A stretch of DNA of 22,080 nucleotides from IMG/VR virus record IMGVR_UViG_2713896773_000024. The stretch is one strand, 5' to 3'. Made by a program: the position numbers and the translations under genes. Source of the DNA: a virus (lineage: Duplodnaviria > Heunggongvirae > Uroviricota > Caudoviricetes). The notes beneath the pieces were generated by a model. That model did not search any database. It was given only the letters and a program-made list of their open reading frames with translations, and was not told the origin of the DNA. Below are positions 1,051 through 4,972 of this stretch, piece by piece (positions within the stretch are counted from its first letter, which is position 1; each line of letters opens with the position of its first letter).

Positions 1051-1371
1051 TTAACCAGTTTGTGTCTCTGAGCGGTCTGATCCAGTTGACTCTGGCCCAA
1101 TGTGTGCGAGGGCCGGTGCGATTTGACCAGCTTGAGGGGCGGTCTTATCAGTCATTAGCCAGAGCGTATATTTTGCAAAACGGGGGTGTTGTGTGATCTT
1201 CAACAAAATTTCACTACCAACTCCTTCTCTTCTCCCCATCTCGTAATGCTTTTGAGTACCTGCCGGAATACCTGTCAATTCAAAGAATTGAGTTCTGGAT
1301 AGCCCTTCAGCATCCCTAATTGCTCGAATTTTTTCCCCAATCCCGCTTGACTGGGTCTCATTTGATACCAT
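1051..1371 (-). CDS. C: Immunity repressor, P2 C-type (small HTH protein); start moved to internal ATG with strong RBS
   Basis: HTH-like segment LSRTQFFELTGIPAGTQKHYEMGRR and C-terminal KYTLWLMTD...GQIAPALAH resembling P2 C as I recall it; ATG at 1369-1371 (minus) preceded by AAGGAG 6 nt upstream; lies between int and cox. Confidence 0.72.
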   Translation of the reverse strand: MVSNETQSSGIGEKIRAIRDAEGLSRTQFFELTGIPAGTQKHYEMGRREGVGSEILLKITQHPRFAKYTLWLMTDKTAPQAGQIAPALAHIGPESTGSDRSETQTG

Positions 1372-1405
1372 ATCCTTCTCCTTAGTGGGTCTCAATTGAT
1401 ACCAT
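1352..1405. promoter_or_regulatory. Two 20-bp direct repeats (TGGGTCTCATTTGATACCAT at 1352-1371, TGGGTCTCAATTGATACCAT at 1386-1405), candidate repressor operators; first copy overlaps the C start codon
   Basis: 19/20 identity read directly from the sequence, 34 bp apart; P2 C is known to bind directly repeated operators in the switch region. Confidence 0.5.
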
Positions 1406-1434
1406 TGCAACGAAAAGGCAACCGCCAATATAAG
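1405..1434 (+). promoter_or_regulatory. Candidate sigma70 promoter firing rightward (TTGCAA, 17-18 bp spacer, ATATAA/TATAAG), -35 overlapping repeat copy 2
   Basis: Hexamers read from sequence only; no experimental support. Confidence 0.3.
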
Positions 1435-1587
1435 CAGTTACAAGCCGAAATAAGCGCCTAGCGCTAATGCGGAGATTAGCACAAATGAGTGGAAGACTTG
1501 AGCAGGGCAACAGAAGTGACGGAATCCATGTTGCTGAATTCCGCCGTAGTTATTTCCCAAATGGACGTTATGCAGGGACGGTTAAAA

Positions 1588-1824
1588 CTAGTGGCTCCGT
1601 TTCGGGGCCAGTGAAGAAGCAAGTTCAGCTTTAGCAATGTATTGCTGGAGGAAGGTTACGGTGTCTTTTGCTTGCTCAATGGTTAAACCAGTAAACAACT
1701 CGCCTGCTTCGGGCAGTTTTGTCGGTGTAGCTAAGTGGTAGTGGAAGCGTAAGCAAGCCAGGTCATTAGCAACGAGGTATTCAAGTTCAGCAGGAATGTA
1801 GATAGGTACTTCTTTCTGAGACAT
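1588..1824 (-). CDS. Hypothetical 78-aa protein lying between the repressor and cox (no counterpart in the P2 switch region)
   Basis: ATG at 1822-1824 (minus) with AGGAG 6 nt upstream; protein-like composition (MSQKEVPIYIPAELEYLVANDLACLRFHYHLATPTKLPEAGELF...); no family recognised. Confidence 0.55.
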   Translation of the reverse strand: MSQKEVPIYIPAELEYLVANDLACLRFHYHLATPTKLPEAGELFTGLTIEQAKDTVTFLQQYIAKAELASSLAPKRSH

Positions 1825-1920
1825 AAAGATCTCCTTTCTGGTTGTGTGGAAACTCCAGAATACCACGCGCCGGGCGTGGCTAAAAATCCCGGCATATCTT
1901 CAATGAGAGGTGATAACGCT

Positions 1921-2948: not shown

Positions 2949-3383
2949 ATGTTTAATAAACTGTTTGGAAAAAAAGTAGCAGCGGCAAAAGTTGAACTTA
3001 AGAAAGTGGAAAATCGCGATCTTATGGAAGCTATTGTCGGCGGTTGTCTTTTGGTATCTGCCGCCGATGGCGAGATCGAAAAAGAAGAAACCAGCAAGCT
3101 GGATCAGCTTATCCGCTCTAACCCGCGCCTTGCGCATTTCGGCAATGAAATTACATCCACCATCAACCGCTATACGGAACAGCTTGAAGCTGGCTTCCGC
3201 GTTGGCCGCATGAACATTTTGCGCGAAATCGACGACATCAAAAACGATCCGAAAGAAGCCGAAGAAGTCTTCGTCAACATGCTGACTATCGCCGAAGCGG
3301 ACGGCCAGATCGAACCAGAAGAACAGAAGGTGCTGGAAGAGGTCGGGCGCCGTCTGGGGCTGCGTGTTGAGGATTATCTCTGA
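2949..3383 (+). CDS. TerB-family (tellurite-resistance TerB-like) domain protein, 144 aa
   Basis: Two repeats of the TerB-type acidic motif: AIVGGCLLVSAADGEIEKEE and MLTIAEADGQIEPEEQKVLEEVGRRLGL; overall pattern similar to E. coli TerB as I recall it; ATG 2949 with AAGGA 9 nt upstream. Confidence 0.7.
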   Translation: MFNKLFGKKVAAAKVELKKVENRDLMEAIVGGCLLVSAADGEIEKEETSKLDQLIRSNPRLAHFGNEITSTINRYTEQLEAGFRVGRMNILREIDDIKNDPKEAEEVFVNMLTIAEADGQIEPEEQKVLEEVGRRLGLRVEDYL

Positions 3384-3565
3384 TGCTGCGCGTGCTGGAT
3401 TCACTACGTCCGGCGCTGGCCCTGCTGTTGGCCTTCATGGTCGTAGCAGTGGATTTCACCAGCTACCTGCTTTCGGTGATTGGCGACGCCTTCTTCGTTG
3501 GCGCTCTTCTTCTCCTTGTCTGGCCTGCCATCAAGTCAGCTAACCAATCAGCGGATCACCAGTAA
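3383..3565 (+). CDS. Small membrane protein, 60 aa, two predicted TM helices; translationally coupled to the TerB-like gene (TGATG overlap)
   Basis: Hydrophobic stretches ALALLLAFMVVAV and FFVGALLLLVW; start overlaps upstream stop by 1 nt. Confidence 0.6.
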   Translation: MLRVLDSLRPALALLLAFMVVAVDFTSYLLSVIGDAFFVGALLLLVWPAIKSANQSADHQ

Positions 3566-3607: not shown

Positions 3608-3820
3608 ATGACTAAACGCGATCAATATAACTTCATCCTGCACGTTCTCTTACCTGCTGTTGAGCGTGAAGGGCTGACGATTAAAACCCGCCGCGATGGT
3701 GAGTTAACCCTTTCTTCTGACGATCCCTCTGTTTCCTGCTTTATCGACGACATGCGCCAGCGCCTTACCACGGCGTTGCAGCGTCCGGCTGTTCCATCTT
3801 CCCCTTACGGAGTCCTGTAA
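3608..3820 (+). CDS. Hypothetical 70-aa protein
   Basis: ATG 3608 with GAGG upstream; no recognisable motif. Confidence 0.55.
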   Translation: MTKRDQYNFILHVLLPAVEREGLTIKTRRDGELTLSSDDPSVSCFIDDMRQRLTTALQRPAVPSSPYGVL

Positions 3821-3821
3821 A

Positions 3822-4793
3822 ATGATCCGCCCGTTCATCAAATGGGCAGGGGGTAAAACCCGTGTCCTTCCTGACCTGCTGCCGCACCTTCCTAAAGCCG
3901 ACTGCCTGATCGAACCGTTCGTAGGCGGCGCATCGGTATTTCTGGCGACTGAGTACCGCCGCTATGTGCTGGCTGATATCAACCCGGATCTTATTAACCT
4001 TTATCGGAAAGTCACCCGTTACCCGGACTTAGTGATCGATGCGGCCCGCGAACTGTTCAACAGCAAGAACAGCCCGCAGGGGTACAACGAAGTCCGCGCC
4101 GCGTTCAATAAGCAGGTATGTACGGTAAAAAGCTGTGGGTTGCGTTATGGCGTCGAAATGGCGCGCATCATGCGTGCTGCTCAATTCCTGTATCTGAACC
4201 GCCACGGTTATAACGGCTTATGCCGTTACAGCCGTAAGACCGGCTTTAACGTGCCGTTTGGCAAGTATAAGAGCGTCTACTTTCCTGAAAATGAAATCCG
4301 CCTGTTTGCCGAAAAGGCCAACGATACAAAGGCAATATTTCTTTGCGCGCCGTTCCAGCGTTCTCTACAGGTCGTCACGGGTGGCGATGTTCTCGTTTAC
4401 TGCGATCCGCCTTACCTGCCTGAAAGCAAAACAGCCGATTTTACCCAATACCACACCGAACCATTCACGGAAGACAACCACCGCCAGTTAGTCCAGGCAC
4501 TGCTGGAAGTTAACCGTAAGCATGGCGTGAAGGTTGTCATTTCCAACAGCGACACCGAAGCCACCCGCGCGATTTATCAGCCTTTCAAGATGCACGAAAT
4601 CAGCGTGCAACGTTCCGTCAGCACTGACAAAGACAACCGCCAGAAGGCCAAAGAAGTGATCGGCGTGCTGCCTGTCTGCGACTGCTGCGGGCGTTACGGC
4701 GGCGGTTGCCCTGATTGTGGCGCCGTGATGGGTGATGCGACTTACAACGCGATGGTTGCGGCAGGCACGTTTGACGATATGGAGGCGTTTTAA
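3822..4793 (+). CDS. dam: DNA adenine methyltransferase, Dam family, with about 45-aa Cys-rich C-terminal extension
   Basis: KWAGGK, EPFVGGASVF (motif I), DPPY (motif IV), LYLNRHGYNGLCRYS, ISNSD; clearly collinear with E. coli Dam as I recall it; extra tail ...PVCDCCGRYGGGCPDCG.... Confidence 0.9.
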   Translation: MIRPFIKWAGGKTRVLPDLLPHLPKADCLIEPFVGGASVFLATEYRRYVLADINPDLINLYRKVTRYPDLVIDAARELFNSKNSPQGYNEVRAAFNKQVCTVKSCGLRYGVEMARIMRAAQFLYLNRHGYNGLCRYSRKTGFNVPFGKYKSVYFPENEIRLFAEKANDTKAIFLCAPFQRSLQVVTGGDVLVYCDPPYLPESKTADFTQYHTEPFTEDNHRQLVQALLEVNRKHGVKVVISNSDTEATRAIYQPFKMHEISVQRSVSTDKDNRQKAKEVIGVLPVCDCCGRYGGGCPDCGAVMGDATYNAMVAAGTFDDMEAF

Positions 4794-4972
4794 TGAATCT
4801 TGTAGACGCCTGGATCGTTGAAATCATAAGCGTGAGTCGTGGCGAGATTGTGCCGTATTGGTTGGTTGAGGCGAAAGTAACAGCTTATGGAAGGGAGTCA
4901 ATAACCACAATTCTGAAGAAATCAGAAGAGGAAGCCAAAGCCGTTAAAGTAGGGGATGTAGTTCAAATATGA
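4793..4972 (+). CDS. Hypothetical 59-aa protein (below the ORF-track size cutoff), coupled to both neighbours (TAATG upstream, ATGA downstream)
   Basis: Uninterrupted frame MNLVDAWIVEIISVSRGEIVPYWLVEAKVTAYGRESITTILKKSEEEAKAVKVGDVVQI; GGAGG 7 nt upstream of ATG 4793. Confidence 0.5.
   Translation: MNLVDAWIVEIISVSRGEIVPYWLVEAKVTAYGRESITTILKKSEEEAKAVKVGDVVQI

Follow-up and report, generated by a model that had tools for sequence, protein, structure and literature searches.

Why do the start codons of the immunity repressor gene C and of cox lie 549 bp apart in the P2-like prophage (family Peduoviridae) of IMG/VR virus record IMGVR_UViG_2713896773_000024, and what occupies the space between them? 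In the stretch of 22,080 nucleotides analysed here (the window), this gap contains two 20-bp direct repeats at its C end and an open reading frame (ORF) of 78 amino acids, p78, on the minus strand. A previous sequence-only reading, which correctly gave the separation as about 550 bp, considered the whole gap to be an expanded immunity switch, with p78 as a possible third component. Comparison with related phages leads us to a different answer, to which we assign a probability of about 0.78: a normal switch of the P2/Wphi type (1340-1488) followed by an independent moron cassette (~1489-1920), that is, a separate and swappable 438-bp cargo cassette at the ancestral cox start codon. The anatomy, presence/absence polymorphism, conservation and covariation described below were read directly from the sequences compared, and the coordinates of all features are collected in Table 1.

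The size of the switch can be measured in phages that carry the same repeats. We searched viral contigs for exact copies of the repeats and then determined how far the start of cox lies from repeat 1. The cox ATG is found 130 nt after repeat 1, with no insert, in L141 and L148 (E. coli ECONIH5), and L144 and L147 have an empty-type junction as far as examined, one repeat or the cox start being incompletely matched. The distance is 567-568 nt in L142 and L111, which possess the same insert as the window, and 982 nt in L146, where the same left junction and a small rightward ORF (orfS, see below) are combined with another leftward cargo gene, coding for a 159-amino-acid protein whose hydrophobic stretches suggest a membrane location. 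The occurrence of identical repeats without insert, with this insert and with other cargo implies that the switch proper is of normal size (~115 bp, 1372-1488), the net insertion being 438 bp, and the notion of an expanded switch has to be given up. Where the C allele is another one, the same spot is vacant in phiT5282H and occupied by three other ORFs in SEN5; LT883142 and L012 also have different cargo there. E. coli prophages hold in this slot either an unrelated 79-amino-acid gene or an ECs1072-family gene together with a 153-amino-acid ORF, and L025 contains two cassettes in tandem. The C-cox junction is, in short, a recurrent cargo slot. All filled sites examined share the left junction GGAG(A/G)TTAGCACAAATG..., which corresponds to the ribosome-binding site (RBS) and the initial codons of an earlier cox allele and is still readable in SEN5 as ...GTTCATTGAAGT. 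The intact cox has a new RBS, supplied by the right end of the cassette. The most economical history would be a single ancient insertion in the 5' part of cox, with later replacement of the cargo by exchange between its conserved flanks.

The repeats are arranged like an operator. In agreement with the sequence-only reading, they are nearly identical (19/20 positions; consensus TGGGTCTCA(T/A)TTGATACCAT), start 34 bp apart, and the first overlaps the C start codon; allowing up to three mismatches, they are the only matches in the 22 kb, for a chance expectation of 0. They accompany this C allele in eight viral contigs and in E. coli ECONIH5, insert or no insert, and a check for their absence from relatives with the same repressor found them present with this allele in every relative examined. 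In the Wphi and P2 immunity regions, where C and cox are likewise divergent, the C repressor is known to bind an operator of two direct-repeat half-sites flanking the -10 box of the early promoter Pe; in Wphi, where this operator was defined by experiment, they are spaced by 34 bp (PMC1904268). The best Pe candidate in the window, TTGACT-N18-TATCCT, reproduces this layout, as repeat 1 fills its spacer and repeat 2 follows its -10. The whole motif is kept in every phage bearing the same repeats, its -35 also in phiT5282H and SEN5, and we infer that it corresponds to Pe. A rightward promoter had previously been placed at repeat 2; the motif in question does exist (TTGCAA at 1404-1409, followed by TATAAG), but its -35 is not conserved among phages of the same immunity, several of which with the same repeats have TTAAGA instead, so that it probably is not Pe. 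The two repeats most likely are half-sites of the C operator, with predicted binding of the repressor to both: their layout and 34-bp spacing equal those of the Wphi operator and they travel with the C allele.

The window departs from Wphi and P2 in the sequence of the half-sites, in the length of the repeat (20 bp versus 10 bp) and in the cassette that parts the switch from cox. Its different C allele implies a different immunity type, and the switch, though of the familiar P2/Wphi kind, would represent a new immunity type, with a predicted operator. A comparable difference is seen in phiT5282H, whose C protein is 86% identical to that of the window with the differences clustered in the N-terminal helix-turn-helix (HTH) region, and whose repeats occupy the same positions with a different sequence; HTH-focused divergence together with changed repeats is the pattern expected of heteroimmune relatives. 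An earlier survey had found C-cox spacers too variable in size to align (PMC3448106). In the remainder of the switch, the 13 bases at 1406-1418 are variable or deleted among relatives, and the sequence from 1419 onward (GCAACCGCCAATATAAGCAGTTACAAGCCGAAATAAGCGCCTAGCGC) is near-invariant in relatives with or without insert, with a few substitutions in SEN5 and L146. A hairpin (GCAACCGCCAATATAAGCAGTTAC) lies at 1418-1441, in the part of the switch conserved across all relatives compared; it was scanned as terminator-like on the minus strand and may sit in the leader of the C transcript.

The 78-amino-acid ORF is well formed and has an AGGAG RBS, as the first description stated. Its homologues form 17 clusters (58-95% identity) from Enterobacterales hosts (Escherichia, Salmonella, Enterobacter, Yersinia, Serratia, Rahnella, and Photorhabdus) and share the invariant motifs ACLRFHY and FTxLTxEQAxD. 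Ratios of nonsynonymous to synonymous substitution rates (dN/dS) of 0.10-0.21, with saturated synonymous sites, indicate that p78 is a real gene under purifying selection, and lack of conservation, which would have spoken for a spurious ORF, was not what we found. Such a gene, with or without orfS, might act as a third component of the lysis/lysogeny switch, by modulating C or Cox or by setting the dose of cox through convergent transcription. Its position between C and cox does force Pe transcripts across it, and any leftward promoter in the gap would interfere with cox expression. Yet phages of the same immunity lack p78 or have other cargo at the same spot, family-model searches detected no recognizable DNA-binding domain in the protein, and homologues in other P2-like prophages are placed elsewhere, 3' of cox and one small ORF and immediately 5' of the DUF4761 or fil gene, in every case on the strand opposite to the early operon. 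Homologues at another slot imply a behavior unlike that of a switch component, and we regard this role of p78, suggested by the sequence-only reading, as very improbable.

On the opposite strand, the cassette encodes orfS, which uses the ancestral cox start, converges on p78 and overlaps its 3' end by 47 nt. A motif RRxYFxxGxxxG is kept in every p78 cassette examined (window, L003, L007, L104/L050, and L131) through synonymous and conservative codon changes, and occurs in 7 of 102 contexts of the boundary element described below, versus none in control frames; orfS is also found beside other cargo genes in L146 and L016. It probably is a real micro-protein. We considered that it could be a by-product of a terminator hairpin lying within it, and rejected this reading because conservative codon changes (for example, AAA to CGT) fall outside the stem. 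This hairpin, likely the p78 terminator keeping the leftward transcript out of the switch, is followed by a U-rich tract and folds better as minus-strand RNA (-16.3 kcal/mol, z -3.7) than as plus-strand RNA (-9.9 kcal/mol, z -1.1); similar GGCGGA...TCCGCC hairpins are present in L007 and LT883142. Translation of orfS across it would help Pe transcripts to get through.

The convergent arrangement of p78 and orfS, with overlapping 3' ends in every p78 cassette examined, and the conservation of the orfS motif could also point to a two-gene conflict module (toxin/antidote, exclusion, or anti-defence). Opposite orientations would lead to expression in opposite phases, p78 being made in the lysogen and orfS only from the lytic promoter, where it would neutralize p78 or take over from it. 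Against this, no PADLOC, Pfam or NCBIfam model of known defence or toxin-antitoxin systems matched, and PADLOC in particular returned nothing for p78, orfS or the SEN5 cargo proteins; orfS is associated with unrelated cargo in L146 and L016, its length varies from 17 to about 50 amino acids across cassettes, and neither protein resembles a membrane toxin. We consider such a module unlikely.

The right part of the cassette contains a two-hairpin element that turned out to be widespread. The palindrome CCACGC-GCCGG-GCGTGG, noted earlier at about 1856-1872 between p78 and cox, is real and lies at 1863-1879. It is not peculiar to the switch and forms the core of an element spread over many unrelated phage contexts. 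Read on the plus strand, the element comprises the start codon of a leftward gene and the complement of its Shine-Dalgarno sequence, then hairpin A, whose stem varies and whose loop is approximately TTGWSTGTGGAAAS, hairpin B (CCAyGC GCCGG GCrTGG) after a spacer of 0-2 nt, a stretch rich in A and finally CCCGGCA; a second class does without hairpin A. A pattern scan (GCGCCGGGCRTGG-N4-9-CCCGGCA) matched at least 120 viral contigs, about six of them GC-rich false positives, and the element is present in both P2-like and lambdoid phages. We collected 102 distinct versions and built from 48 copies a covariance model, which detected 99 copies in 93 sequences (92 loci and the window), including tandem arrays and copies missed by the pattern. 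Hairpin A comprises 30 distinct stems with 198 Watson-Crick pairs, 9 of 13 pairs in the model alignment change on both sides, and at one position of the hairpin B stem 62 sequences have C-G and 34 have U-A, without a single mismatch. RNAalifold applied to a MAFFT alignment gave only an alternative GCCGGG/CCCGGC stem because the hairpin A arms were out of register; realignment with the covariance model restored hairpin A. No Rfam 15 family was found at gathering thresholds for the window or twelve other element loci, nor for the window's own copy even at E values up to 10, and the literature searched yielded no description of the sequence, only two unrelated chance matches. Candidate identities examined include a sigma-70 promoter on either strand (no consistent -35/-10 pair across classes, and extended -10-like motifs only, at shifting offsets) and, by eye, P2 late-promoter TGT-N12-ACA dyads, LexA, FNR, IHF, and CsrA sites and RfaH ops; none of these site types gave a convincing match.

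Wherever the context was annotated, a rightward lytic operon surrounds the element, and in most cases a leftward cargo gene has it at its 5' side. In HK225, it separates Q and its terminator from the holin gene, with leftward gp66 to its left; further examples are the pL operon of HK639, the unannotated cII-fil gap of SopEPhi, which holds a 91-amino-acid leftward ORF, and the Rac-like early operon of an E. coli O157:H7 prophage. Clustering of the proteins encoded by the adjoining leftward ORFs gave 44 clusters, nearly all of small, uncharacterized proteins. The 91-amino-acid ORF of SopEPhi (L135, AY319521; 2189-2464, minus strand) was left unannotated in the published record, and in HK639 (L134, ~2138-2553) a rightward ORF was annotated in place of the small leftward gene. 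Many cargo proteins start with Met-Ser, and some (e.g., those of L037, L014, and L018) show weak similarity to GhoS (E 7e-4) or to Lar-like and other zinc-ribbon proteins. In L025, another P2-like prophage, copies are found at 2468-2532, 3061-3156 and 3789-3872 (minus strand of the locus); the solo copy has no leftward gene and comes immediately 3' of the DUF4761 gene, ahead of a fil-like gene. Where copies precede fil-like genes, an extra conserved hairpin, CAACCGTCTATCCGTGGGCGGTTACC, is found between the element and the RBS of the following rightward gene (e.g., L041, L108, L110, L119, L122, L131, and L025 at 2440-2470). In the viral contig L016, Rfam matches to C4 antisense RNA and isrK were obtained at 4658-4855, ~2.3 kb away from an element copy.

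A working model of the region can be proposed for repressor binding, promoters, expression timing, and the function of protein and element, all of them inferred from the comparisons above. In the lysogen, C would bind both half-sites flanking the Pe -10 and keep rightward transcription off, and p78 would be expressed to modify the host in an accessory role rather than to take part in the switch. Upon induction, the Pe transcript would first be translated into orfS from the old cox RBS, then run antisense through p78 and the two-hairpin element, and finally reach cox with its new RBS, the convergent transcription silencing the cargo gene. The need for the rightward transcript to cross p78 antisense, already anticipated in the sequence-only reading, appears to stand; the consensus scan detected no further promoter in front of cox. 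In many temperate phages, the element would serve as a common right-hand boundary for cargo genes that point leftward within lytic operons, and a shared boundary of this kind would let cargo be exchanged by recombination.

Several observations weigh against this account. Pe, Pc, and the cargo-gene promoter are predictions from sequence, and for p78 no canonical promoter emerged from the consensus scan; a possible extended -10 was read by eye (Table 1), and analogous TGnTAnnnT motifs exist just leftward of hairpin B, at different offsets, in other element classes. P2-like early operons are not known to have antitermination, so that read-through from Pe across ~290 nt of untranslated antisense RNA to cox is a supposition. 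As a conserved micro-protein found with different cargo, orfS may have a function of its own outside the cassette model. The assignment of p78 to BssS is below threshold when made directly (Pfam PF13991, 14.9 bits, E 0.03, for a cut-off of 27), and hhalign comparison of its family with chromosomal BssS is weak (probability 15%, E 0.0017). Finally, the plus-strand bias of the G-U pairs in the element makes a poor fit to a mere 5' leader of the cargo gene.

This last point raises the tentative possibility that the element is not an expression signal of the cargo but works as a structured RNA within rightward lytic transcripts, where it might stabilize or process the messenger beyond the antisense stretch or insulate the lytic genes that follow. 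G-U pairs favor the plus strand in the distinct stems (15 versus 6), in the model alignment (72 versus 41) and in hairpin B (14 versus 0), even if the model alignment is itself biased toward plus-strand pairs, and the element folds better on that strand (z -2.2 versus -1.4). In many contexts it lies directly 5' of the RBS of the next rightward gene, solo copies without cargo gene exist, and 27 of 98 distinct right flanks contain a plus-strand terminator within 110 nt downstream, compared with 5 of 101 control windows. On the other hand, each class of element keeps a tightly constrained distance between its core and the cargo start codon (41-43, 72-75, or 79-85 nt), and hairpin A and the cargo Shine-Dalgarno complement overlap, which ties the element to the cargo gene; on the cargo strand, hairpin B followed by a U-rich tract is also terminator-like. 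None of the 27 terminator-bearing flanks belongs to the cox-adjacent (P2-like) copies; one possible explanation is that lambdoid antitermination would tolerate such terminators, whereas in a P2-like phage cox would be blocked. These terminators are typically AGGCTGCC...GGCGGCCTTTTT and mostly start 9-22 nt after CCCGGCA; examples are L024 744-790 and L133 (HK225) 1880-1905, which together with the element resemble the 3' end of a small RNA (sRNA).

Alternatively, the element might be a recombination site, a landing pad for site-specific cassette exchange that would make the C-cox gap one among several integron-like slots for cargo. Tandem arrays and the solo copy upstream of fil in L025 would suit such a role, as would an invariant core next to a hypervariable left side, and the stem covariation is as compatible with a folded single-strand site as with an RNA. 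A TTAsCACAAA box found at the left junction recurs beside the core in one element class, but this similarity is short and only partial in the window. No dedicated recombinase was seen accompanying the element, and all filled C-cox slots have one ancient left junction with a truncated cox. A single shared junction fits one insertion followed by homologous exchange, and we judge site-specific exchange improbable. Taken together, the chance that the element represents a new functional class in phages, either as an RNA that allows lytic transcripts to tolerate or control antisense cargo or as a folded recombination site, seems to us real and well short of even. Were it true, the class would be common to P2-like and lambdoid phages, and in the case of a folded recombination site, the C-cox, cII-fil, Q-holin, and pL operon slots would all be exchangeable cassette sites.

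Within the preferred reading of an ordinary switch plus moron cassette, the cargo itself can be given a tentative relationship. A profile scan of 1.8 billion representative proteins retrieved only 13 at E <=0.001 for p78, about half of them small and of similar size and the rest long with several partial matches, without reaching BssS directly. Profile search of the PDB yielded no matches and NCBIfam no meaningful one. The AlphaFold model of p78 (predicted local distance difference test score, pLDDT, 72), a beta-hairpin followed by a long helix, had no significant structural neighbor in BFVD. Weak matches to the Pfam BssS model were obtained for 7 of 18 family members (best E 0.004). The cargo protein that lies behind the same element in L076/L089 is a clear Pfam BssS member (2e-16), and the p78 family profile aligns with it over its full length (probability 93%, E 3e-7); because of this alignment with a clear phage BssS member, we consider p78 as probably a divergent BssS relative. 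It resembles the biofilm regulators of the BssS/YceP family in size, in the predicted beta-hairpin and C-terminal helix, in the C-terminal His and in the motifs LR(F/L)HY and LT-x-(E/D)-x-A. It differs in its sub-threshold Pfam score and in its setting, since chromosomal bssS is located between dinI and a DAO-family oxidase gene (solA in E. coli K-12), with the element absent from its upstream region.

Morons are said to have been defined by Juhala and colleagues in 2000 for HK97 and HK022. As in morons, the cassette provides a self-contained extra gene, inserted where two genes directly adjoin each other in related phages (the empty sites of phiT5282H, L141 and L148), with a predicted terminator of its own and an orientation suited to prophage expression; apart from the promoter, for which the by-eye motif is a candidate, it fits the definition. 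It differs in being antisense and directly upstream of the excision/switch gene cox, and in possessing a convergent micro-ORF and a boundary element common to dozens of unrelated cargo genes. The cargo hotspots listed for P2-like phages are old/tin, Z/fun, and tail-to-CI, and do not include the C-cox gap (Rousset et al. 2022; bioRxiv 2024.10.15.618418). Like these hotspots, the gap is a variable slot for diverse, small and mostly uncharacterized cargo between conserved phage genes, but the cargo found here is very small and points leftward, with a conserved structured element as its boundary, and no known defence system was detected.

The result on the switch is ordinary: one more P2-type immunity class, with a predicted operator that the sequence alone reveals. 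The cassette offers a tractable case of a lytic operon reading through a convergent gene right before its excision/switch gene. The boundary element is the part that merits follow-up: dozens of unrelated small prophage genes, including BssS-like ones, share it, and it provides a sequence handle for antisense-embedded lysogeny genes that annotation often misses, such as the leftward genes of SopEPhi and HK639.

Table 1. Features of the int-cox region of the window (positions in the whole stretch)
Feature	Position	Strand	Remarks
int	1-981	minus	left end, gene order int-C
C immunity repressor, 106 aa, HTH	1051-1371	minus	ATG at 1371-1369
Best candidate for Pe, TTGACT-N18-TATCCT	1347-1376	plus	-35 at 1347-1352, 18-bp spacer, -10 at 1371-1376; consensus scan
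Direct repeat 1, candidate half-site O1, TGGGTCTCATTTGATACCAT	1352-1371	plus	in Pe spacer, overlaps C start codon
Direct repeat 2, candidate half-site O2, TGGGTCTCAATTGATACCAT	1386-1405	plus	just 3' of Pe -10
Rest of switch, presumably including Pc	1406-1488		ends in ancestral cox RBS and ATG, GGAGATTAGCACAAATGA
orfS, 49 aa	1485-1634	plus	uses ancestral cox start, converges on p78
Terminator-like hairpin, GGCGGAAUUCA...UGGAUUCCGUC, then U-rich ACUUCUGUUG	1518-1545	minus	consensus scan
p78	1588-1824	minus	AGGAG RBS, complement of 1831-1835
Two-hairpin element	1817-1899	plus	covariance model 71.6 bits; sole copy in window
Hairpin A	1836-1841, 1855-1860	plus	TTCTGG pairs with CCAGAA
Possible extended -10 of p78, TGgTATTCT	1857-1865	minus	read by eye
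Hairpin B	1863-1868, 1874-1879	plus	CCACGC, loop GCCGG, GCGTGG
Element end	1888-1894	plus	CTAAAAAT, then CCCGGCA at this position
cox, 93 aa	1921-2202	plus	own RBS GAGAGG 1905-1910, from cassette right end

The wider setting is that of a P2-type C/Cox region, with divergent genes for an HTH repressor and a Cox-family protein adjoining int. Cox is matched by Pfam PF10743 (2e-23) and PHROG phrog_272 (8e-39), and C by PHROG phrog_147 (2e-36) along with a weak Pfam HTH_31 match. The early operon continues on the plus strand with a 67-amino-acid ORF, a DUF4761 protein, Fil and further genes. A prophage adjoining cpxP in E. coli strains 0H15 to 0H26 is 100% identical to the window. A second variable slot lies 3' of fil, where the window carries a TerB-family gene and a DUF3927 gene on the plus strand (2950-3565); this pair is present in some E. 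coli relatives and absent from phiT5282H, SEN5 and L012. At 3822-4793, the window encodes an intact 323-amino-acid D12-class adenine methylase (compared with L010 6824-7780), which in the identical 0H26 prophage is annotated in RefSeq as two partial pseudogene pieces.

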